This document shows positions 11,785 to 21,845 of a stretch of DNA of 64,000 nt, one piece after another. The notes beneath the pieces were generated by a model, which saw nothing but the letters and a program-made list of their open reading frames with translations, was not told where the DNA came from and searched no databases. Position 1 is the stretch's first letter. Every line of letters starts with the position of its first letter. This DNA comes from Candidatus Entotheonellaceae bacterium (lineage in GTDB: Bacteria > Tectomicrobia > Entotheonellia > Entotheonellales > Entotheonellaceae), in contig OZ250173.1 in NCBI GenBank assembly GCA_965238075.1, positions 1,408,001-1,472,000 of the forward strand, read 5' to 3'. Made by a program: the position numbers and the translations under genes.

Positions 11785-13113
11785 ATGTGGCTTGAAACGA
11801 CACGACAACACTGGCTGGGCTGTCTCGGCCTGGATGCCGCGGCGGGCTGTCAGTTGCAGATGCAGGACGGCTGGCTCCTGTTCGTCGGGCTCGGCTTGGC
11901 GTGGCTGCTGATACGCGGCGGAAGCCGGCTTTTCAACGCCATTTACACCCTCCGCGCCGCTGCCCCTGATGCCCGCGCTGTCGCGCCACCTGTCGTTGTG
12001 GGTCAAACGCCGCGAGTACGACGAGGATGCCTTTTTCCGCGCCGACGGCGCCGCGGCGCACTGGGCGGAGCGCCGCCAGAAGGCCCTCGACCGCTTGGCC
12101 ACGTACTTTCAGACCAAATACGCCAAATCCGTCGACTGGGGCAATGACATCCGCGACAGCTTCTCGGACCTGCGCTTCACAGACGCCAACCGCGTGCCGT
12201 TTCCGTTCATGCGGGTGATACGGGAGAAATTCAACCTGTGCTCGGTGGTGACGGCCTCCAAGGGACCGAAGCTGCGTGACCTGGACGGCCATTGGAGCCC
12301 CGACGTGGGCGGCTCCTACGGGGTCAACGTGGCCGGCTTCGAGCGGGATGCGGTAGGGCCTGGAGCGGGTGAAGGACGTCGGACCGGTTCTCGGGCCGCT
12401 GCACCCGCTGGTGGCCGACAACATCGCGTTGCTCAAGTCGATTTCCGGGCTCGACGAAGTGTCGTTCCACATGAGCGGCACCGAAGCCGTCATGGCCGCG
12501 GTGCGGCTGGCGCGCTTCAACACCCGCCGCAAACTCATTGTGGCGTTCTCCGGCGCCTACCACGGCTGGTGGGACGGCGTGCAGCCGGGGCTCGGCAGCG
12601 AGCGTGCCATCAGCGACTGCCTCACCCTGAAGGACATGCACCCGGCGTCGCTCGACGTGATTCGCAAACGCTCCAAGGAAATCGCCGGCGTGCTCATCAA
12701 CCCGGTGCAATCGTTTCACCCCAACGCCCCGCCGCCCAGCGACGCGGTGCTGCTCACCAGTAACGTGCGGCAAACCCAGGACCTCGCCTCCGACTACGCC
12801 CGCTGGCTGCGGCAACTAAGCGAGGTGTGCCGGGAATGCAACGTGCCGCTGATCTTCGACGAGGTGTACAGCGGCTTCCGGCTGGCCCCCGGCGCCGCGC
12901 GTCGACCTGGTGGCGCAGCAGTGGTTCGGGCTCACGGTGCTGGTGGTCGGGTGGCACGTCGGGTACCTGATGTGGAAGCACAACACGTGGCTGGCGATGA
13001 TCTGGTTCATCAAGCTGGCCACCGATCCCTTCACCGACATCGTGGCCTACTCGCCCCGCTACATCAACGCTGCCAAAGGGCCGCTGCCGGCGCGAGCGAA
13101 CAGAAGCCGATGA
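11785..13113 (+). pseudogene. Class-III aminotransferase (GSA-aminomutase-like) with membrane C-terminus; frameshifted and internally deleted
   Basis: Consecutive pieces in different frames: LRDLDGH, SFHMSGTEAVMAAVRLAR, FSGAYHGW, LIFDEVYSGFRLAPG; then jumps to a C-terminal WFIKLATDPFTD segment. Confidence 0.8.
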
Positions 13114-13632
13114 GCGTGGCCCTGTTTCTCGCTGCCGCCCTGCTGCTCGGCTTGGAGCGCCTGTTCTACGTCTGGGTGTGGCGCCATCCCGAGACCTTCT
13201 GCGACCTGTGCCGGCGTCCGGCGCTGTGGTTTCTGGGCACCCCGGTCGACGGTGTGCAGCGGTTCTTCTACGTCTTCAAAGTCATTCAGATCGGCGTGTT
13301 TCTGGTCTGATGCGGCTATTTCGGGGACGGCGCGAGCGGCCCGGCGGCCCATGGCGGCGGGCCTCGTGCTCATCCTGGCGGGACAGGTGCTCAACTTCAG
13401 CGTGTTCTACCGGCTGGGCAAGATCGGGGTGTATTACGGCGTCCGCTTCGGCCATGAGGTGCCGTGGTGCCGCGACTTTCCGTTCTCGCTGCTCAAGCAT
13501 CCGCAATACATCGGCGCCGTCATGTCCATCTGGGGCTTCTTCCTGGTCATGCGGTTTCCACACAGAGACTGGTTCGTGCTGCCGGCGCTCGAGACCGTGT
13601 ATTACGCATTGGGGGCGTATTGCGAACAGTAA
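13110..13632 (+). pseudogene. Phospholipid methyltransferase (PEMT-like), disrupted
   Basis: GQVLNFSVFYRLGKIGVYYG, FPFSLLKHPQYIGA; N-terminal piece stops at 13310 in another frame. Confidence 0.75.
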
Positions 13633-13796
13633 GAAGTTGTTGCTGACCACGACAGGGGAACCGTCGTGTCCTGCTCCGTTCGAGCGTTGCCCTCCCGGGG
13701 GCAATCCTTTATCGTATACGCCGCACCGCCAACCGGGATTACCTACCCCCACCGGCGGTGTTTCCCCACAAAACGGCATTCGCGACGGGAGCAGGC

Positions 13797-14639
13797 ATGG
13801 TATCGGCAGTTGTACGTCAGGAAACCCAATCGGCGCGCGACTTTCTCAGGTCGTTGCGTGAGGAAATTCAGTGCCATCCCGGCGTCGGGCATTCGCTGCT
13901 GGGCCGCATGCTGACGGACCCGCGCACCCGCCACGACTTCAAAATCCTGGCCTCGCAGCACTATCCCCTGGTCGCCAATTTCACCACCTACATGGAACTC
14001 CTGCTGCTGCGGGCGCCGAGCAGCGAAGCCAAGCGGTGGCTCGCCAAGGTGTTGGTGGACGAGTACGGCGAGCGCTCGGATGGCGACGACCATGCCGCGT
14101 CCTACCGGGCCTTCATGCACGCCGCCGGTATCGCGCCGGGCAGCGAGGCGAGCTACCCGCTGCATCCCGAGGTGGTCGGCTTCATCCGCGAGCACTACCG
14201 TATCTGTACGCAGGAACCCTTTCTGGTCGGCCTCGGCGCGGTCGGGCCAGGTCATGAATGGTCCATTCCCACCATGTTCGAGCACGTCATGATCGGCCTG
14301 CGCAAGGCCGGATTCGCTGACGACGACGTGACGTACTGGTCGATGCACCTGGATCAGGACGCGGACCACGGGGCGTGGTTGGAAGAAGCGCTAGTGGCGT
14401 TTTGCGAGACGCCGGAAGCGCGGGAGCAGATTCGCCGCGGCGCCCTGCTGAGTCTCAAGGCGCGCGAACAGTTCTGGTGGGGCGTGCTCGACAAGATCAG
14501 CAGCGAACGCACCAAGGCCATGCTGCCCGGCGTCGCCCCGGCCACCGCCGGCGCCGAGGCTACCCAGCCGACGTATGCCGACCTGCGGCAGGGTCTGGAG
14601 ATTCGCGTCGACCTTGGCGCCGTGAGCGGCACGCCATGA
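13797..14639 (+). CDS. Heme-oxygenase-like diiron oxidase (HDO; CADD/PqqC-like iron-containing redox enzyme)
   Basis: Helical protein with LVDEYG...DHAASY, GHE and MHLDQDADH (E..H..E..HxxxDxxH ligand set). Confidence 0.8.
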   Translation: MVSAVVRQETQSARDFLRSLREEIQCHPGVGHSLLGRMLTDPRTRHDFKILASQHYPLVANFTTYMELLLLRAPSSEAKRWLAKVLVDEYGERSDGDDHAASYRAFMHAAGIAPGSEASYPLHPEVVGFIREHYRICTQEPFLVGLGAVGPGHEWSIPTMFEHVMIGLRKAGFADDDVTYWSMHLDQDADHGAWLEEALVAFCETPEAREQIRRGALLSLKAREQFWWGVLDKISSERTKAMLPGVAPATAGAEATQPTYADLRQGLEIRVDLGAVSGTP

Positions 14640-15595
14640 GCTGCCCGACCCCTGCCCTCCTGATGGTGGCGTTCGGCGGCCCGACACCGGGCTGCTGCGA
14701 ACGCTTCACGCCTTGCCCGGGCGAGGCGCACTGCTTTGTCTCCGGCATCCTCGGCCACAACCCGGCGCGCCGCCAGCGCGTCGCCGAAGTGGCGGCCCAT
14801 TATCAGGAATTCGGCGGCTATTCCGAATTCAATGCTTATACCCGGAAGCAAGCCGAGGCGCTGGCCGCGGAACTGGGCTCACGCGGCCTCGACGTGCCGG
14901 TCTGGTGTGGATATCACCACTGGCGGCCATACGTGCGTGAGGTTGTTGCCGATATGAAAGCGGCGGGCGTGCAGGAAATGCTGGTGCTGATCATGGCGCC
15001 GCATCAGTCGTCGGTGAGTTGGGACCTGTATCTGCGGATCGTTGGGGAGGGCATTGAGCAAGCCGGGACGGGTGCCCCGAGGGTGATCGGGGTGGTAGAG
15101 CCGTGGTGGAATGAAGCTGGGTTTACCGAGGCGATTGCCGACCGCATCAGCGAGGCGAGCCGCAACGGGGAGATCAATCTGTGCGCCCCGGACACAGCGC
15201 TCCTGCTCACCGCGCACGCCGTGCCCGAGTCATTATCGCGGACCGCCCCATACTGCAAACAAATCGAAGAGACCGCGGCTCTGGTTGCCGCACAGCTCGG
15301 CGGGCCCGATTACCGCGTTGCCTACCAATCCCAGTCCGGCGATTCGGCCGTGCCCTGGACGCAGCCGATGGTGGAGGACGTCATCGCCGCCTATGCCGAT
15401 GCCGGCAAATCGACCATCGTCGGCAGTGCCATCGGCTTTCTGTGCGACAACATCGAGGTGCTGTACGACCTCGGCGTTGAGGGCCAGCGCCGCGCCGCCG
15501 AGCACGGCCTCCGCTTCGTGCGCGCCGAGTCGGTACACAGCCACCCCGCCTTTATCCGCATGCTGGCCGACCGCGTTGCCGCCAAGCTCGCCTGA
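14636..15595 (+). CDS. hemH: Ferrochelatase (coproporphyrin/CpfC-like) with N-terminal Cys-rich insert
   Basis: LLMVAFGGP, HY..FGGYS, APHQS, TAHAVP, YQSQ..WTQP, GFLCDNIEVLYDL; ATGA overlap with the HDO gene. Confidence 0.9.
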   Translation: MSCPTPALLMVAFGGPTPGCCERFTPCPGEAHCFVSGILGHNPARRQRVAEVAAHYQEFGGYSEFNAYTRKQAEALAAELGSRGLDVPVWCGYHHWRPYVREVVADMKAAGVQEMLVLIMAPHQSSVSWDLYLRIVGEGIEQAGTGAPRVIGVVEPWWNEAGFTEAIADRISEASRNGEINLCAPDTALLLTAHAVPESLSRTAPYCKQIEETAALVAAQLGGPDYRVAYQSQSGDSAVPWTQPMVEDVIAAYADAGKSTIVGSAIGFLCDNIEVLYDLGVEGQRRAAEHGLRFVRAESVHSHPAFIRMLADRVAAKLA

Positions 15596-16279: not shown

Positions 16280-17638
16280 TCACTGCTGGTTCAACCGGTT
16301 CAAGTAATCCGGTATTCCATCGCCATCCTCGTCGGCAAAGCTGCGCTGGCGGGCCGGCACACGGCTCGCCTCTTCAGGCATTGCTTGACGGCGGCGGAGC
16401 ACCATGCCCCGTGACAGGTCAACGACGTCCGAAATCAATTCGGCGATACTGTATTTGGGCTTGACGGTCACAATCCGCGCAATGCCAACGGAGGTTTCGA
16501 GCTGGTCGAGCCGTTCACCGGTATCGGGATCCAACAGCCAGTCGCCTACCGCAAAGACTTCAAACACGCTGCCCGCTTCAACCGTGTTGCCACCCCGGTT
16601 GACGACGAACTGACCTGGTCCCAGCACTTCTGTCACGCGCGGCGGATAGATGTTCTCCGTCAATTCATCGACCATGCGAACCGCAACTTCTTCCAGAAGG
16701 GCCTCTGCTGCTGCTTCGGGCCTCAGCCCCGGGGGCAGCCTACTGTCGAGGGTAATAGCGGAGGACCATTTGACCTGCCGCGTTGCCGCAGCAAGCACGG
16801 TGAATCGCACCTTTGTAGCCCCGTGGGATCGCTCGATTCGCTCACCGGAGGCTCGGATGACTCGGGTCTCGTTTTCAATTGCGACCCGGTCGATCGTGCC
16901 GTACACCAAGTAATCTGCTCCCATGACTCTGCCGAGCCGGGCCCGTTCGCCGATGCCCACGCCCCCGGATGCGAGGATTTGTTTCTCGGCCTCGTACACC
17001 TCCGGTCGTTGACGATCAAGCACGCCAAACCGCCGGCCTTGCGTCAACAGCTCTTCCACCTTTGCACGGAAACCGTGTTGAAGCTTCCTGACAAGCTTGA
17101 AGTCAACGTCTGTACCAACGCGCACGGCACGGCCATCAACCTGCAACTGTCGTCCACCGCCGACCCCGTGGAGATGAACCTCTTCCATCGGAAAGTCGAG
17201 CACGGCCAGCCGCCGCCGATCCATTGATGGCCCCGGCACCCGGTATACCGAATACCGCACACGAACCGCCGCCCGAATCTGTGAACCAGCGCGCCCTACG
17301 GAAAGGATGTCGTAGCCGTCGAAGCCGCAATTCGGATTCTTGCCGCGAACCTTGATTTGCCGATTGACCTTTTCGATCATCGTCGTACGGTCATCGTCCT
17401 CCACAAGCAGCGACCCGGTCTCCATCCTCGACTCGATGTGAACCCCGCAGATCTGGAATGTCGCCTCTTGCAACGCATTCAGAACTGCCTCCTGTTCGCT
17501 GATTCCCCACCCGTCAACATCACGGGTGACGGCGCGAACCTGCGCATTTGCAACTGATACGAAGAAGGCAGCACATATCGCTACCGTGACGACCCCTATG
17601 ACCTGACCGGCCAGGACGTGTTTTCTTGTACGTTCCAT
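16280..17638 (-). CDS. CsgG/HfaB-family protein with FlgT_C-like domain and terminal DxDxDG motif
   Basis: RRLAVLDF, RRFGVLDR, LGRVMGADYLVYGTI, VVNRGG...DPDTGERL...IGIARIVTVKPKYS; ends DEDGDGIPDY; RBS GGAGG. Confidence 0.8.
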   Translation of the reverse strand: MERTRKHVLAGQVIGVVTVAICAAFFVSVANAQVRAVTRDVDGWGISEQEAVLNALQEATFQICGVHIESRMETGSLLVEDDDRTTMIEKVNRQIKVRGKNPNCGFDGYDILSVGRAGSQIRAAVRVRYSVYRVPGPSMDRRRLAVLDFPMEEVHLHGVGGGRQLQVDGRAVRVGTDVDFKLVRKLQHGFRAKVEELLTQGRRFGVLDRQRPEVYEAEKQILASGGVGIGERARLGRVMGADYLVYGTIDRVAIENETRVIRASGERIERSHGATKVRFTVLAAATRQVKWSSAITLDSRLPPGLRPEAAAEALLEEVAVRMVDELTENIYPPRVTEVLGPGQFVVNRGGNTVEAGSVFEVFAVGDWLLDPDTGERLDQLETSVGIARIVTVKPKYSIAELISDVVDLSRGMVLRRRQAMPEEASRVPARQRSFADEDGDGIPDYLNRLNQQ

Positions 17639-17718
17639 GGCTGCCTCCACCATTTTGACGGCAATCTCGACATCTTCGGCTTCTTCTGGCGCAGCACCAT
17701 ATGGCAATGGGTTCCCTT

Positions 17719-19146
17719 CTAAAAATCCTCCGTTTGGATGTTCTCTCTGCGCAACAACCTTGGGGTCGGTTCTATGGCCTCCTCGTCGGGCGTGGTTTTC
17801 TTAGGAGATGCTCTGTTCGGATTGCGCATTACCTCTTGTGCCCGTTTCGCCGTCGCCACGCCTGTCGGAGACCAAGAGACCGCTACAACCGCAACCTTCT
17901 GTCCATTGGCTGGATGCGGTACAACCCACCGGCCAACCACTGTGAGCCCTGTTAATTCAATGGCGTCGGTGTTTGACTTCAGCTTCTCCATAAAGTCGTT
18001 CCTAATTTCCCCGCTGAAGGCTGCGTCAGCATACTCGGTGGCGGTCTCCTCGCCCTCATCTGCTCTTTCCGATCTCACGGTCTCACCCACGAACCCCCGT
18101 ATGGCACCTATGGCACGAACCTCGGCCCGACTTAATGCCATATCCTCTGCCCTTGCTCGGCGAGATGGTGAAGCCCTGCGCGGTGCGGCCTGACCAAATC
18201 CGACGAATACTTGGTCACCGTTCTCATCAATCAGCTTGTGAACACCCCAACTTGCGGAGATAGAGTCCTTACGCTTCGGCAACCAGTCAGAAACACGGAC
18301 TCTCGCTTTGCCTGTGTTCGCTGGCGCATATCCTCCAGCGACTGCTCGAGCAGCAAGTTCAAGCCGAGGGCTCCACACCAATCCAACGAGAATCTCGTAA
18401 GACTTACCATCTTGCGTTGGCCCTTCTAGCACCGCCATGGGCATGGCGCCAGACACAAAGCTTGAAGACACTGCCGTAATTTTCCTCTCGAAGGTGCTGC
18501 GGAAAGCCTCCTCTTTCTGCTCGCGACTGCCATACTTATCCGGATCATACATCGGATCAACCTGCACGAGCGCCTGGTCGAGTTGCGCTTCCGCGAGAGC
18601 TTGCATCTTTTTCGCAATCCGATCCACTTGCTTCAGGCGTTCGAGGGCTTCCCCTTGACCATCTGACCACCGTGCATTCTCAAGAGCATCATACGAAGTT
18701 CTTTTTCCGGTCTCGATTCCGAGAAACCCTACCAGCGTGACCTTGGCACGAAGGTAAGCAATCTCATATGCCATGCTACGCGACTCATGAAATCCTGGAT
18801 GATCTATCGGAAACTCTACCGTTTGTCGACCATTGGCTATGTATATATCCCGTTCGTTTGCTCCTTCTTGAAGACCTTTTTCGTCAAGGAGATCCTCCCA
18901 ATCTGCCATCAAACCAGCACTGTACATGCCAACGTGCTGGTTGGCCAAATCGTCCGGCAGTCGTTCCGTCGCTTCTTCCGCCGTCGTCGAGTCGGCAGCG
19001 GGCGCCTCCACCTCGGCTGCGACAGCCACCGCATGGCTAACCATCAGAAAAACGGCCAGCATAAGAAGCCCGGCGTGTAGAACGAAGGAACCTTTCCGGA
19101 ATCCTTTCCCAAGCATCAACACAGTCTGCTCGGATTGCTTCTTCAT
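17719..19146 (-). CDS. Exported conserved hypothetical protein (DUF6844-like)
   Basis: 475-aa ORF, signal peptide, GVHKLIDENGDQVFVGFGQ; operonic between LpoB and CsgG. Confidence 0.6.
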   Translation of the reverse strand: MKKQSEQTVLMLGKGFRKGSFVLHAGLLMLAVFLMVSHAVAVAAEVEAPAADSTTAEEATERLPDDLANQHVGMYSAGLMADWEDLLDEKGLQEGANERDIYIANGRQTVEFPIDHPGFHESRSMAYEIAYLRAKVTLVGFLGIETGKRTSYDALENARWSDGQGEALERLKQVDRIAKKMQALAEAQLDQALVQVDPMYDPDKYGSREQKEEAFRSTFERKITAVSSSFVSGAMPMAVLEGPTQDGKSYEILVGLVWSPRLELAARAVAGGYAPANTGKARVRVSDWLPKRKDSISASWGVHKLIDENGDQVFVGFGQAAPRRASPSRRARAEDMALSRAEVRAIGAIRGFVGETVRSERADEGEETATEYADAAFSGEIRNDFMEKLKSNTDAIELTGLTVVGRWVVPHPANGQKVAVVAVSWSPTGVATAKRAQEVMRNPNRASPKKTTPDEEAIEPTPRLLRRENIQTEDF

Positions 19147-19223
19147 CGTCTTATGCTCCTATCATTGAGAATTACGCGATACTCAATCGACATGACAACC
19201 TTGTGGCGCACACGTTCCTTGGT

Positions 19224-19862
19224 CTACCAAACAAAATTATCGTTCGGACCCAGTTTGGCGATAACCGCCTCGAACTCCCAGTAGGCCAGGCCGGTTTCAA
19301 TATTGGTCGCCGTCAACTGGAAGTAATAGTCGGCTTGCTGCTTGTTGCCAACCCGGTTGACGCGCTGAATGATTTTTCCAGACAGGCTGAGATCAGGCGC
19401 AACCATCGTACCCCTACCCGCAACCGTGTCCTGGTTGAACTCATCCGAATCCCTGAGCTGTCGAACCTCCATGCTCAGTGCGTCTTCCGGCCCGTCCGCG
19501 CCGACTGCCGTCGTTACCATCACGCGTCCGCTGTTCAGAAGCGCAACGCGCATCTTCTTGACCAACTGGTCTGCATCAAGATTAAGCGTCGTGTCGTTCG
19601 TAATGCGACTGATCGCCATGATCCAAGGCGCCGAGCTCCCGGGCTTGCGGGACAACGGACTGTTCAAGAATGAATCTACAGCCTTTTTGGCGGAATATTC
19701 GAAATCACGATAGTCCAGGCCGAACGTTGTCTCACCGCCTGTTTGTTGACGCGTCGTGTATGTCGGATCACTAAGATTGACGACGCTCGTTGTACCGCAT
19801 CCGGTCAAGCCGATTGACCCGACTAAAATAGCAAGAACGAGTAGTCCGTAGCCTGATTTCAT
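19224..19862 (-). CDS. lpoB: LpoB-family lipoprotein (PBP activator-like)
   Basis: Lipobox LTGC; GLDYRDFE, ITNDT, KMRVALLNSGR, PDLSLSGKI, YYFQLTATNIETGLAYWE. Confidence 0.82.
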   Translation of the reverse strand: MKSGYGLLVLAILVGSIGLTGCGTTSVVNLSDPTYTTRQQTGGETTFGLDYRDFEYSAKKAVDSFLNSPLSRKPGSSAPWIMAISRITNDTTLNLDADQLVKKMRVALLNSGRVMVTTAVGADGPEDALSMEVRQLRDSDEFNQDTVAGRGTMVAPDLSLSGKIIQRVNRVGNKQQADYYFQLTATNIETGLAYWEFEAVIAKLGPNDNFVW

Positions 19863-19925
19863 TTGGTGTCTCCTCATATACGTTCTCGTTTACGTTCTCG
19901 TTGGCCCGTCCGAGTGGGGAGATTG

Positions 19926-21845
19926 TCAATTGAGACGAGATGCCGACAGCAGTTCAAGTCGGAATTGCGCAATATCGTCTCTCGGTGCGGTTCCCGCAAG
20001 CATTGCCCGCGCGCGCGGCAGTGCATGAACCACCTGCCAATCACCGAGAATGCTATCCACCGGTTGACCCGCCGCATCCAGCCAAGTGAACCGGTAAGCC
20101 GCCGTCAACTTCCTTCTCGACTGATTGAAAAAGTCGCCTGCCACGCGCAGCAGGCCAGTAGCGTTTCGCGCTCGAGTCATTCGCAGATCGCGCAATCCGC
20201 GACGAGTCAGACGCTTGTCGACCGACACCCAGGGTACCCACCAGTCGCCAGACGAGGGCGCCACTATCACCTCTGTTGAGACCGAAGGCGGCTCTGGCAT
20301 AACTGCGGACGGCCTGTCCTCCTCGGTTACACCAACTGCATCGGACACCTTGATGATCTGAGCCTGTATTCCAGATATCCGCGGCGGTGGGTCTATGGAC
20401 GCTTGTTCCATCCCGCGGCCCATGGCGGCGACGTGGATGGCCGGCGGCGCTCCCGCAGTGACGGTTTTCACGGTGACCAGAGCGAAAGCGGTGGGTGGCA
20501 ACGTTAGATCAATGGCGGCGCCTGAACCAGTCGCGACCAAGATCCGCCCGTCAGCCGGACGCGGGAGACTCGCCACACCAATCGAATGCGGCAGGACGTG
20601 CCACATCCGTGTGTCCGCTCTCGTCGTGGCGGAAATTGCAGCGTTGGCGAAAATGCCGAGCAATGCCCCGGCCAGACCTTGATCTCCCAAGGTCTCGTTG
20701 ACAACGACTTGCGCCAGTGTTTTGACCACGGTCGACGCAATGGCCTTGCCGACGATGGCGTTGTAGCCGGCGCGAAACTCCGTAGCCGCGTAACGATTGA
20801 CATTCAGCAGGGTTTGGGTCCGATATTCCACGCCGTCGGCGCGAATCCCTAGCGTACCTAACGCGGGTCTGCCAACCACGAATTCCGGCAGCGCAATGGC
20901 AGAAAAGATTGGCCCACTCGGCGTGAAGACATTGAATTCGAACCGAAACTCTTCCAGATGCGGCCCAATACCATCCTCGTGAACGATCCAAACCCGTGCC
21001 GGAACATCGCCCAAACTACCAGCGGCCTCCCCCGCTACGATCAGGTCCTCCAGGGCGTGGCGATTCTGTCGGCCATCAAGCACAACCGCGTTGCGGAACA
21101 AGTCCGAAGCGCGATTGGATTCGCCCGTTGCCAGACGGAAGGTGCCATGCAACCAGTCCGTAAACGGGTTGCGGAGATCACGATACTCACCAAGCGCCTC
21201 GACGGCCGCCAAACGTTGCGCAACCGCGCCGTCCGGTTTCATGACGTCATCAAGTGTTCTGTCGACGTTCGCAGATTGCGCATTCTCCTCGGGATCCTCT
21301 GCCCTCAAGGCCTGGACCTTCACGGCAAGCTGTTCGACGGCGTTGGTTTGACGCTGATCCGCTCGGTTCAACTCGACCCGGGCGCGGCTCTCGTCGCCCA
21401 GATGCAGAGCGTTTATCGCCTTGTAGGTGTTGATCAGAACCCCATCATAAATGTTCCCCTGATACGACCGCACGAGATCACTGCTCACGACCGTCAACCC
21501 CGCCCCGAGCAAGTCTTCGAGACTGTTGATTCTGTTTGACTTCCACAGGAGTTGCGATTCCGCGCGGTCGAAAGCAACCTGGGACGACTCGAACGAGCCC
21601 GCTGCTCTCAAGGCCAGACCTACCTGGAGCGACGTGAGCAGGTTCTCCTCGTCATAGTCGAGCGCGTTGTCACCGCCGAGGGTGCCTGCGGCTGCCATGT
21701 AGTCGCCTTGGGCGTATGGACCAAGAAACTCCTGGCTGCCCCGTATATCGGCCATCCCGGCACACCCGCAAACAGCCAGAACCACCACAATGAGACTCCA
21801 GGCGCAGAACCGAGAGATCCAGAACTCCAGAATCGTCTTACGCAT
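19926..21845 (-). CDS. COG3014-family lipoprotein fused to a C-terminal YcfL (DUF1425)-like domain
   Basis: Lipobox VCGC; YQGNIYDGVLINTYKAIN, ARVELNRA, ADTRMWHVLP; C-terminal AYRFTWLDAAG...APRDDIAQFRLEL. Confidence 0.78.
   Translation of the reverse strand: MRKTILEFWISRFCAWSLIVVVLAVCGCAGMADIRGSQEFLGPYAQGDYMAAAGTLGGDNALDYDEENLLTSLQVGLALRAAGSFESSQVAFDRAESQLLWKSNRINSLEDLLGAGLTVVSSDLVRSYQGNIYDGVLINTYKAINALHLGDESRARVELNRADQRQTNAVEQLAVKVQALRAEDPEENAQSANVDRTLDDVMKPDGAVAQRLAAVEALGEYRDLRNPFTDWLHGTFRLATGESNRASDLFRNAVVLDGRQNRHALEDLIVAGEAAGSLGDVPARVWIVHEDGIGPHLEEFRFEFNVFTPSGPIFSAIALPEFVVGRPALGTLGIRADGVEYRTQTLLNVNRYAATEFRAGYNAIVGKAIASTVVKTLAQVVVNETLGDQGLAGALLGIFANAAISATTRADTRMWHVLPHSIGVASLPRPADGRILVATGSGAAIDLTLPPTAFALVTVKTVTAGAPPAIHVAAMGRGMEQASIDPPPRISGIQAQIIKVSDAVGVTEEDRPSAVMPEPPSVSTEVIVAPSSGDWWVPWVSVDKRLTRRGLRDLRMTRARNATGLLRVAGDFFNQSRRKLTAAYRFTWLDAAGQPVDSILGDWQVVHALPRARAMLAGTAPRDDIAQFRLELLSASRLN

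Follow-up and report, generated by a model that had tools for sequence, protein, structure and literature searches.

The window analyzed here, a stretch of 64,000 nucleotides from a Candidatus Entotheonellaceae bacterium (contig OZ250173.1, positions 1,408,001 to 1,472,000), encodes a protein of the HDO superfamily (heme-oxygenase-like diiron oxidases/oxygenases), called HDO in the following, and directly downstream a ferrochelatase of the coproporphyrin type (FeCH). The features of the locus, in positions of the window, are:

13797-14639, plus strand: HDO gene encoding 280 amino acids, with a TGA stop at 14637-14639 and an alternative GTG start at 13758
14636-15595, plus strand: gene for the HDO-paired copy of the coproporphyrin-type ferrochelatase (FeCH), encoding 319 amino acids, with an ATG start at 14636
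14636-14639, plus strand: ATGA stop/start overlap of the HDO and FeCH ORFs, read straight from the sequence
13995-14369, plus strand: stretch encoding the putative metal ligands E67, E89, H99, E154, H184, D188, and H191 of HDO (invariant columns; correspondence to CADD taken from an HMMER alignment)
14693-14734, plus strand: insertion of FeCH with four Cys residues (C20, C21, C27, and C33), N-terminal, between the first strand and the first helix
13686-13705, plus strand: terminator-like hairpin in the interval between the upstream gene and the HDO gene, a weak feature, as two sites are found versus 1.3 expected from shuffled sequences

As the stop codon of the HDO gene and the start codon of the FeCH gene overlap, the two genes are probably translationally coupled, and in the five closest related loci (L011-L015) the same junction is found with 0-9 nt between the HDO and FeCH matches. 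Genes encoding a glycosyltransferase, a class-III aminotransferase, and a membrane methyltransferase-like ORF are situated 5' of the HDO gene in the window, and the terminator-like hairpin suggests that the HDO-FeCH pair constitutes a transcription unit of its own.

Properties of HDO and its paired ferrochelatase

HDO matches the PF14518 model (Haem_oxygenas_2) with 96 bits (cut-off 28.9), and its closest homologs, which are 96-97% identical, begin with the same Met residue. The AF2 model of HDO (pLDDT 81.3, pTM 0.82) adopts the seven-helix heme-oxygenase-like fold of the HDO superfamily. Foldseek returns CADD, BesC, HrmI, UndA, and FlcD as top matches to this model, each with a probability of 1.00, and identity to the first four amounts to 17-21%. 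Residues E89, H99, E154, H184, D188, and H191 align with those positions of CADD which we take to be its metal ligands, and HDO therefore appears to possess the three-His, three-carboxylate dimetal ligand set of the superfamily. None of these six residues, nor E67, varies among 22 aligned homologs, and the ligand set is invariant in both HDO clades described below (61 and 16 rows). HDO represents a distinct and highly conserved family, for which binding of two metals and activation of O2 are predicted.

FeCH matches the PF00762 model (Ferrochelatase) with 220 bits (cut-off 27), and its best relatives of solved structure are coproporphyrin ferrochelatases, i.e., 116.7 bits are obtained for CpfC from Listeria versus at most 80 bits for human FECH. 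The invariant residues H194 and E274 align with H182 and E263 of Listeria CpfC and are the catalytic His and Glu of the ferrochelatase fold. Residues Y56, S63, and Y132, which are invariant as well, align with Y46, S53, and Y124 of the Listeria enzyme, the equivalent of T14 being located outside the aligned stretch. According to PMC9794026, T14, Y46, S53, and Y124 of Listeria CpfC form hydrogen bonds with propionates 2 and 4, and the residues binding these propionates are thus kept in FeCH for the equivalents of Y46, S53, and Y124. The proximal Y12 of Listeria appears to be replaced by an invariant F13, an assignment made by its position in the GxP strand motif, as this segment lies outside the HMMER alignment.

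In contrast to CpfC from Listeria and Bacillus, its best PDB relatives, FeCH possesses the four-Cys insertion after the first strand and a surface predicted to bind HDO. All four Cys residues are invariant in 18 of 18 aligned sequences, and of 43 aligned full-length HDO-linked ferrochelatases all but one, an ORF call without the N-terminus, possess the insertion. Since the second hemH of the genome, a paralog in the gene order hemE-hemH-hemY, carries the motif too, the four Cys residues were rejected as a mark of HDO-linked ferrochelatases. The genomic company of FeCH is that of the coproporphyrin route: hemY and a gene for ChdC are present in the genome of the window, hemE precedes the second hemH, and HemF and HemN were not found in this genome. 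The initial annotation of this DNA had described an HDO with a full ligand set and a CpfC-like ferrochelatase joined by an ATGA overlap, a description which is borne out by the alignment with the CADD ligand positions and the invariance of these residues, by the PF00762 match and the relatedness to CpfC, and by the ends of both ORFs.

Conserved linkage and predicted complex

Gene neighborhoods were surveyed as had been proposed with the initial annotation, and the linkage proved to be conserved over two phyla: of 80 independent related loci from Tectimicrobiota and Planctomycetota, 44 encode FeCH directly downstream of HDO in the same orientation. In 31 of these 44 loci, the HDO and FeCH matches are at most 150 nt apart, the largest gap comprising 3568 nt, and across the loci with adjacent genes in the two phyla, HDO proteins are 54-97% identical to the one of the window. 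In the HDO tree, 44 of the 61 rows in one clade (support 100/98) adjoin FeCH, which, shadow ORFs aside, is the only neighbor family common to more than 28 loci. FeCH is absent from the flank in 13 loci of this FeCH clade for which at least 4.5 kb of downstream sequence are available. Nine Planctomycetota with adjacent genes were sampled, and none of the nine genomes encodes a ferrochelatase other than the linked FeCH. The pairing of HDO and FeCH is more than chance.

Other heme genes may accompany the pair, i.e., in the order HDO-hemH-hemE-hemY in one locus (L023), whereas in another (L017) HDO-hemH is flanked by a tetrapyrrole methylase, cobS, and cobD, and hemE-hemY begins 4.7 kb downstream. 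As hemE or hemY is encountered in the flank of only 4 of 80 loci, heme genes were rejected as a general feature of the flanks. A His-rich membrane protein is encoded just upstream of HDO on the same strand in 12 Planctomycetota loci, its gene ending 47-64 nt before HDO in two of them (L036 and L030), and a NikR-type regulator is encoded upstream of HDO in 13 loci. Members of a sister clade, 54-60% identical to the HDO of the window and with the same ligands, do not have a ferrochelatase as partner but B12-binding radical SAM proteins, to which they are coupled or, as in Myxococcota, fused. HemF is present in three of seven searched genomes of this clade. A fusion of HDO with FeCH was also considered and rejected, as none occurs among the five homologs of at least 491 amino acids, which is weak evidence; two of these five are fusions with B12-radical-SAM proteins.

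Prediction of a complex between HDO and FeCH gives a median ipSAE of 0.88 in three runs, compared to 0.01 for the best of three controls, and passes the mark for a complex. In a calibration, this mark was reached by 58 of 80 complexes of solved structure and by 2 of 110 pairs of mismatched proteins, counts which hold only roughly as own alignments were used. The runs agree in at least 96% of contacts, and partner pLDDT is at least 83. The predicted interface of FeCH consists of residues 37-48, 124-142, 197-206, and 234-239, flanking the catalytic H194, and also covers segments aligned to the binding residues for propionates 6 and 7 in Listeria CpfC, at the opening of the cleft. The modeled complex places HDO on top of this opening. 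The consensus of HDO is common to the FeCH-linked and the radical SAM-linked clades at 39% of 41 interface positions versus 70% of 200 other positions. Likewise, the hemE-hemH-hemY paralog keeps 7 of 13 invariant interface residues versus 53 of 60 invariant residues outside the interface (p = 0.009). On both proteins, residues of the modeled interface are clade-specific.

Heme-pathway genes in genomes encoding HDO

Among 151 sampled Planctomycetota genomes, 11 qualify as strong-HDO genomes, i.e., they score at least 440 bits with the HDO profile. FeCH is present in 11 of these 11 versus 91 of 151 genomes overall, HemF and HemN are present in none of the 11, and ChdC in two. Among 34 FeCH-positive genomes that lack HemN and HemF, ChdC is found in 2 of 11 HDO-positive versus 15 of 23 HDO-negative ones (Fisher p = 0.026, ignoring kinship, the HDO-positive genomes being close relatives). 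Similarly, ChdC, HemN, and HemF are all missing from 9 of 11 strong-HDO genomes versus 8 of 80 HDO-negative, FeCH-positive genomes (p = 1.4e-6, with kinship again ignored).

AhbD-like radical SAM genes (E<=1e-50 to TIGR04053) occur in 15 of 17 FeCH-positive Planctomycetota without ChdC, HemN, and HemF, regardless of whether HDO is present or absent, and in none of 58 genomes with HemN or HemF. Such a gene of the TIGR04053 family is found above the cut-off in 9 of 11 strong-HDO genomes. It lies 1.1-2.4 kb from FeCH in three HDO-less Planctomycetota (G062, G073, and G129), and in the loci examined it was not found beside the HDO-FeCH pair. A full siroheme (Ahb) route, which would free the chelatase for another use, was rejected, as the siroheme decarboxylase domain PF17805 was found in zero of five HDO-positive Planctomycetota, each of which possesses only one AhbD-like gene.

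The initial annotation had argued that the coproporphyrin route requires a decarboxylating step which HDO might provide. This argument is weakened, because there is no gap that HDO would have to fill: besides HDO, the genome of the window carries ChdC, another hemH adjoining hemY, and a radical SAM gene resembling AhbD/NirJ2. ChdC accompanies HDO in 14 of 43 FeCH-clade genomes. A strong gap-filling argument was dropped as proof because 15 of the 17 genomes with the apparent gap possess AhbD-like genes. Of the anticorrelations expected between HDO and the known decarboxylases, the one with chdC is seen, and hemF and hemN are absent from the strong-HDO genomes; for ahbD the opposite was found. 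HemY is encoded in 43 of 43 FeCH-clade genomes tested and HemY/CgoX in 47 of 50 HDO genomes.

Possible roles of HDO

In the current view, ChdC or AhbD catalyzes the final step of the coproporphyrin route. The HDO UndA converts R-CH2CH2-COOH to R-CH=CH2 and CO2, which formally is a propionate-to-vinyl conversion. Like HDO, UndA (PDB 4WWJ and 6P5Q) displays a helical fold of the heme oxygenase type (Foldseek TM 0.64) and a diiron site with carboxylate and His ligands. In contrast, identity between both is only about 17%, UndA is a stand-alone enzyme employing a free fatty acid as substrate, and HDO possesses a conserved C-terminal tail and an N-terminal loop that are predicted to be its ferrochelatase-binding parts.

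In the reading that we favor, with a probability of roughly 0.4, HDO is an O2-dependent coproheme decarboxylase bound to the chelatase. The two-gene operon would encode a heterodimeric terminal module of coproporphyrin-dependent heme synthesis, in which FeCH would insert Fe(II) into coproporphyrin III and HDO, placed over the mouth of the porphyrin cleft, would take over the product coproheme. With its diiron(II) center and O2, HDO would then convert propionates 2 and 4 into vinyl groups by oxidative decarboxylation and thereby form heme b, by UndA-type chemistry and with the same net step as ChdC. HDO would relate to the AhbD-like radical SAM enzyme encoded in these genomes as HemF relates to HemN, with HDO being the one that uses oxygen. 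What was observed comprises the pair of genes, the set of ligands, the conservation of their linkage, the context of heme operons, and the pattern of co-occurrence; complex and interface are model predictions, and substrate and reaction are inferred by us. A review (PMC10548856) lists three enzyme classes for propionate cleavage. If coproheme is handed over directly in this way, which is similarly tentative, a diiron HDO docked on CpfC would be a fourth, evolutionarily independent propionate-to-vinyl class after HemF, the radical SAM enzymes HemN/AhbD, and ChdC.

The step proposed for HDO is carried out by ChdC (HemQ) directly after CpfC, and a ferrochelatase-ChdC fusion is reported for Cutibacterium acnes (PMC8529089). 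ChdC, which is partly anticorrelated with HDO and co-occurs with it in the genome of the window, differs from HDO by its unrelated alpha+beta-barrel fold and by employing H2O2 and the iron that the substrate itself contains instead of a diiron site. AhbD is an oxygen-independent coproheme decarboxylase (PMC10548856) and, in contrast to HDO, an oxygen-sensitive radical SAM enzyme. AhbD and the radical SAM/SPASM proteins of the TIGR04053 family, a family designation that did not occur in the literature searched, are the main rival for the terminal step. An AhbD-like gene is present in most HDO genomes. Against a decarboxylase speak the ChdC, second hemH, and AhbD/NirJ2-like genes that leave no gap in the genome of the window, the 14 genomes in which ChdC and HDO coexist, the sister clade with its same ligands and B12-binding radical SAM partners, the close kinship of the HDO-positive genomes on which the co-occurrence statistics are based, and, weakly, the lack of an HDO-FeCH fusion among the five long homologs. 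Also, we know of no HDO that acts on a tetrapyrrole.

In agreement with the initial annotation, no HDO in tetrapyrrole synthesis was found in the literature searched, nor was HDO literature mentioning ferrochelatase or coproheme decarboxylase; an HDO mini-review of March 2026 does not mention porphyrin, tetrapyrrole, or ferrochelatase, and a heme review of August 2026 does not mention diiron or oxygenase-like enzymes. Tied genetically to FeCH in two phyla and predicted to bind it, HDO may catalyze an undescribed, O2-using last step of heme synthesis. Planctomycetota and Tectimicrobiota would then possess an O2-dependent, ChdC-independent terminal heme step, and HDO would be the first of its superfamily to act on a tetrapyrrole and the first to be an obligate partner of another enzyme. 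An HDO bound to a chelatase would add either a new class of terminal enzyme or a new kind of chelatase partner, and either way HDO chemistry would extend from amino acids and fatty acids to tetrapyrroles.

In a rather unlikely alternative, HDO would handle metal on behalf of the chelatase: Fe(II) would be delivered or gated by the labile diiron(II) site of HDO or by a site in one of its conserved loops, and coproheme would then be decarboxylated by AhbD-like enzymes or ChdC. The predicted tight complex would fit equally well, the ChdC or AhbD-like genes in most HDO genomes imply that no catalytic step is missing, and the His-rich membrane protein and NikR-type regulator encoded upstream suggest a metal supply. 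The cofactors of HDOs are known to be labile, which would suit such a role. However, the catalytic-type set of three His and four carboxylate residues is invariant in both clades, including the one without a chelatase, and what HDO covers in the predicted complex is the entrance for the porphyrin, not an evident channel reserved for metal. To our knowledge, no HDO acts as a metal chaperone, and the anticorrelation with ChdC would not be expected for one.

Also unlikely is that HDO modifies substrate or product of the chelatase otherwise, be it by O2-dependent oxidation of coproporphyrinogen, by hydroxylation or desaturation leading to a modified heme or porphyrin, or by protection or repair of the four-Cys site. 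Linkage and predicted complex are equally in line with this, HDOs catalyze many reaction types according to the literature, and Fe-S clusters are or may be present in both types of partner, the four-Cys chelatase and the radical SAM proteins linked to the sister clade. Yet with HemY/CgoX in nearly all HDO genomes a second porphyrinogen oxidase is not needed, neighboring genes indicate no modified heme, and the four-Cys motif is shared by the paralog with the diverged interface.

A function unrelated to tetrapyrroles, such as the oxidation of amino acids or lipids known from other HDOs, with the adjacency reflecting hitch-hiking in an operon and the predicted complex being a false positive, seems quite improbable. 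The nature of the upstream genes in the window, the 13 FeCH-clade loci without FeCH in the flank, the rarity of hemE and hemY near HDO, and the two mismatched pairs that passed the calibration would be compatible with it. Against it argue the close adjacency across two phyla at HDO identities down to 54%, the singular position of FeCH as recurrent neighbor, its presence in every strong-HDO genome, and the clade-specific conservation of the interface on both proteins.

By sequence and fold, CADD (CT610) and BesC are the nearest solved HDOs (profile search E of about 1e-11, 46-47 bits; Foldseek TM 0.64-0.67 by query length and 0.82 by target length), and the six ligand positions are the same. 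They differ from HDO in that identity amounts to only 18-20% and that HDO remains far below the cut-offs of the family models, with 37.8 bits on the CADD model TIGR04305 (cut-off 200) and 38.4 bits on the BesC model (cut-off 500). Tyr27, the sacrificial substrate residue of CADD according to PMC9522330, corresponds to the invariant L35 of HDO in the alignment. In favor of a self-sacrificing p-aminobenzoate synthase of the CADD type or a PqqC, one may cite CADD as the best match in fold (TM 0.64 by query length), the borderline PF03070 score of 22.2 bits (cut-off 22), and the name PqqC given to several homologs by JGI. Either identity is highly improbable for HDO: the TIGR04305 score, the low identity, and the Leu in place of Tyr27 speak against the CADD type, the lack of a PqqC NCBIfam match at E<=0.1 speaks against PqqC, and neither folate nor pqq genes were seen among the recurrent neighbors. 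Clustering of HDO with CADD or PqqC would have been fatal to the proposal according to the initial annotation; HDO is an ortholog of neither. The HDO family is large, comprising 930 cluster representatives (E<=0.001), and its database names are generic or, wrongly, PqqC or TenA.

Linkage of the HDO gene to a ferrochelatase gene

The genes for the heme-oxygenase-like diiron oxidase (HDO) and the ferrochelatase overlap by a stop/start ATGA common to both ORFs, as stated in the initial annotation, and the features of this region are as follows.

13686–13705: terminator-like hairpin between the upstream gene and the HDO gene (weak evidence)
13797–14639, + strand: HDO gene, 280 aa, PF14518 (Haem_oxygenas_2), 96 bits
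14636–14639: ATGA stop/start overlap of the two genes, read from the sequence
14636–15595, + strand: ferrochelatase gene, 319 aa, PF00762 (Ferrochelatase), 220 bits; hemH according to NCBIfam

Because of the weakly supported hairpin upstream and the convergent orientation of the gene 3' of the ferrochelatase, the pair looks like a two-gene operon, and its closest relatives are found in Candidatus Entotheonella/Tectimicrobiota MAGs. Upstream of the HDO (11969–13632, + strand), a HemL-like class-III aminotransferase occupies at least two frames (ORFs 11969–12763 and 12369–13310) and runs into a membrane methyltransferase-like ORF (13252–13632, + strand); its apparent frameshifts are of the same kind as that in the second hemH of this genome. 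Between 16000 and 22000, GC content is 0.54–0.59 versus about 0.65 elsewhere, in a stretch where four large minus-strand ORFs (16280–21845) with signal-peptide/lipoprotein-like N-termini are clustered.

Scanning one genome per species yielded 80 loci encoding HDO relatives that are 54–97% identical to the window HDO. In 44 of them the HDO gene is followed on the same strand by a ferrochelatase gene, which confirms conserved linkage, and the gap between the two matches is at most 150 nt in 31 of these 44 loci, at most 700 nt in 40, and 3568 nt at maximum; for 12 of the 36 loci without ferrochelatase, the available downstream sequence is shorter than 4.5 kb. When all ORFs of the loci were clustered, ferrochelatase alone among the real neighbour families exceeded 28 loci. 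Only 4 of the 80 loci carry hemE or hemY in the flank; one has the order HDO-hemH-hemE-hemY (L023), and in another HDO-hemH is situated among cobalamin genes, with hemE-hemY beginning 4.7 kb downstream of hemH (L017). On the same strand 5' of HDO-hemH, a NikR-type regulator (NikR_C, 94.8 bits) is encoded in 13 Planctomycetota loci and a His-rich membrane protein without family match in 12 (L030, L036, L034, L043, and eight to nine more), the latter ending 47–64 nt ahead of the HDO in L036 and L030. A maximum-likelihood tree of 78 HDO rows, built after removal of three below 250 aa, contains a clade of 61 rows from Planctomycetota and Tectimicrobiota (support 100/98), 44 of which adjoin a ferrochelatase (FeCH clade), and, as its sister, a group of 16 rows largely from Myxococcota (support 98/95).

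A separate HDO family and its coproporphyrin ferrochelatase

Homology searches with the window HDO identify 930 cluster representatives. The best 120 of these are 57–98% identical, nearly all of about 270–280 aa, and their annotations are limited to “iron-containing redox enzyme family protein”, PqqC, TenA, or hypothetical. The full ligand set claimed earlier is borne out by alignment of 22 sequences, in which seven candidate ligand residues (E67, E89, H99, E154, H184, D188, and H191) are invariant, six of them aligning with the ligand positions of CADD. The AF2 model (pLDDT 81.3) matches the folds of CADD, BesC, HrmI, UndA, and FlcD at 17–21% identity. Scores against the NCBIfam models are 38.4 bits for BesC (cut-off 500) and 37.8 bits for CADD (cut-off 200), and the position of Tyr27, described as the sacrificial residue of CADD (PMC9522330), is an invariant Leu. 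The invariant ligand residues, the low identity to the fold matches, and the replacement of Tyr27 identify the protein as a genuine HDO that belongs to a family of its own; it is not an orthologue of CADD or of PqqC, either of which in the initial annotation would have spoken against a heme-pathway role. One homologue (P0127, 509 aa, on a 5.4-kb contig; 53% identical across 46% of the query) is annotated as joining an HDO to multihaem cytochrome domains (PF14522, PF22113), for which a true fusion or an error of gene calling may account.

The best solved relatives of the ferrochelatase are coproporphyrin ferrochelatases (116.7 bits for Listeria CpfC versus at most 80 for human FECH), and the CpfC-like label thus holds. 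Catalytic H194 and E274 are invariant, as are Y56, S63, and Y132, which align to Y46, S53, and Y124 of Listeria CpfC, reported to hydrogen-bond propionates 4 and 2, absent from protoporphyrin (PMC9794026). The proximal Tyr12 of Listeria CpfC appears to be Phe13 here. A four-Cys insertion (CC...C...C; C20, C21, C27, C33; 14693–14734) follows the first strand and is found in 42 of 43 aligned HDO-linked ferrochelatases, the 43rd ORF call being without its N-terminus; the second hemH of the same genome (L002 1136–1591) has it as well. These cysteines may form a site for a metal or an Fe-S cluster. Their position differs from that of the ferrochelatase [2Fe-2S] motifs described in PMC8529089, which are located in a C-terminal tail or an internal insertion.

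Heme biosynthesis in HDO-bearing genomes

The window's genome, a single 3.35-Mb contig, encodes ChdC, an AhbD/NirJ2-like radical SAM protein, and a second ferrochelatase within a hemE-hemH-hemY cluster; HemF and HemN were searched for in this 93% complete genome and neither was found. Its heme route is therefore complete without the HDO, which is not needed here to stand in for a missing decarboxylase; this weakens the argument behind the initial proposal. Compared with the intact genes of three related genomes, the second hemH (L002 1136–2100; G000:C1:1775366–1776330) lacks one base in a T run and is thereby broken into two frames, reflecting either an error of the (long-read) assembly or a pseudogene; in the latter case, only the HDO-linked copy would be a working chelatase in this genome.

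Fifty HDO-bearing genomes were taken from the 80 loci (30, mostly short contigs, were left out), 43 of the FeCH clade (G001–G043) and seven of the sister clade (G044–G050), and 151 Planctomycetota genomes served as co-occurrence sample, with a strong HDO defined by a score of 440 bits or more against the HDO profile.

Heme genes in 50 HDO-bearing genomes and in 151 Planctomycetota genomes
HDO: 15/151 (11 strong)
ChdC: 15/50 (14/43 in the FeCH clade); 26/151 (17 strong)
HemF: 3/50, all sister clade; 29/151
HemN: 2/50 above cut-off; 43/151
HemY: 47/50
Ferrochelatase: 49/50; 91/151

Since ferrochelatase is single-copy in G005–G043, except for a 25-bit fragment in G008, the HDO-linked ferrochelatase is the housekeeping enzyme in Planctomycetota. 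An AhbD-like radical SAM/SPASM protein (at least 200 bits to the AhbD model) is encoded in 21 of the 29 ChdC-less FeCH-clade genomes; the one from G012 reaches 443 bits with TIGR04053 (cut-off 395) and 330 bits with the AhbD model (cut-off 500). Siroheme decarboxylase was found in none of five HDO genomes, so the full Ahb route is not run there.

Among the 151 genomes, AhbD-like genes (E ≤ 1e-50) occur in 15 of 17 ferrochelatase-bearing genomes without ChdC, HemN, and HemF, in none of 58 with HemN or HemF, and in 5 of 17 with strong ChdC; a decarboxylase gap in HDO genomes lacking the three enzymes is rejected on this basis. Three HDO-less Planctomycetota (G062:C90, G073:C4, G129:C171) possess an AhbD-like gene with 257–301 bits to TIGR04053, and the ferrochelatase gene located 1.1–2.4 kb from it suggests a coproporphyrin route ending in an AhbD-type enzyme. 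In planctomycetes, the part of AhbD, which a review treats as an oxygen-independent coproheme decarboxylase (PMC10548856), may be played by the TIGR04053 family. All 11 strong-HDO genomes possess ferrochelatase. Within 34 coproporphyrin-type genomes, ChdC is present in 2 of 11 with HDO versus 15 of 23 without (p = 0.026, kinship ignored), a moderate anticorrelation. The anticorrelation expected at the outset is seen for ChdC, and HemN and HemF are each found in 0 of the 11 strong-HDO genomes; for AhbD the opposite holds, as 9 of the 11 carry an AhbD-like gene above the TIGR04053 cut-off.

Predicted complex and possible roles of the HDO

A dedicated partnership of the HDO with the coproporphyrin ferrochelatase in heme synthesis is well supported. 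Folded together, each with its own alignment, the two proteins gave ipSAE values of 0.89, 0.88, and 0.88 in three runs versus 0.00, 0.00, and 0.01 in three controls, with at least 96% of contacts agreeing and partner pLDDT of at least 83; in the tool's calibration, 58 of 80 solved complexes attain the mark, compared with 2 of 110 mismatched pairs, figures that are rough here as custom alignments were used. Since no solved complex of an HDO with a ferrochelatase is known to us, the prediction probably does not reproduce an existing structure. The predicted ferrochelatase interface consists of residues 37–48 and 124–142, aligned to the Listeria CpfC segments that contribute R29 and Y124 to the opening of the cleft, 197–206, which come after catalytic H194, and 234–239. 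On the HDO it comprises the strongly conserved 25–42 loop, residues 123–125, and the final long helix together with the C-terminal tail (217–253). The FeCH clade and the radical SAM-linked sister clade share the same consensus at 39% of 41 interface positions versus 70% of 200 others; at G31, S33, D41, E224, and W228, at least 98% of the sequences of one clade agree, and the other clade differs. Similarly, the hemE-hemH-hemY paralogue, 44–45% identical to the HDO-linked ferrochelatase, keeps 53 of 60 invariant residues outside the interface but only 7 of the 13 within it (p = 0.009). Both independent checks fit a real and specific interface.

We tentatively favour, with a probability of about 0.4, a role in which the HDO would dock at the predicted porphyrin exit of the ferrochelatase and decarboxylate coproheme oxidatively. 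This reading is preferred because UndA is a direct precedent for such chemistry within the HDO superfamily, because the catalytic-type ligand set is invariant, because the modelled docking site would coincide with the porphyrin exit, and because the HDO tends to replace ChdC while the oxygen-sensitive AhbD-like enzyme is kept, a combination that resembles the HemF/HemN pairing. A further reason is the parallel offered by the ferrochelatase-ChdC fusion reported for Cutibacterium acnes (PMC8529089). Iron delivery to the chelatase or its gating, the former already considered at the outset, seems less likely. It would account equally well for the predicted complex and for HDO co-occurrence with ChdC and AhbD, and is also consistent with the genes for a NikR-type regulator and a His-rich membrane protein that precede the pair in 12–13 Planctomycetota loci. 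In agreement with the initial statement that no HDO is described in tetrapyrrole synthesis, our literature search found no paper linking an HDO to ferrochelatase or coproheme, and two 2026 reviews, searched by term, are likewise silent.

Confidence is limited by the sister clade, as no model explains why B12-binding radical SAM proteins (HpnR/BchE type) are the coupled partners of 15 of its 16 HDOs; two fusion proteins of this kind also exist (P0123, P0126). In these Myxococcota and allies (for example L071 6460–8813, L089 6133–11363, and L090), the HDO is translationally coupled to the radical SAM gene, often with one on each side, and these partners score below the cut-offs of the HpnR and BchE models. 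A third kind of partner is an ABC1/UbiB-type atypical kinase, encoded with stop/start overlap after a divergent, long-branch HDO in a Halobacteriovoraceae MAG (L078 7995–10327).
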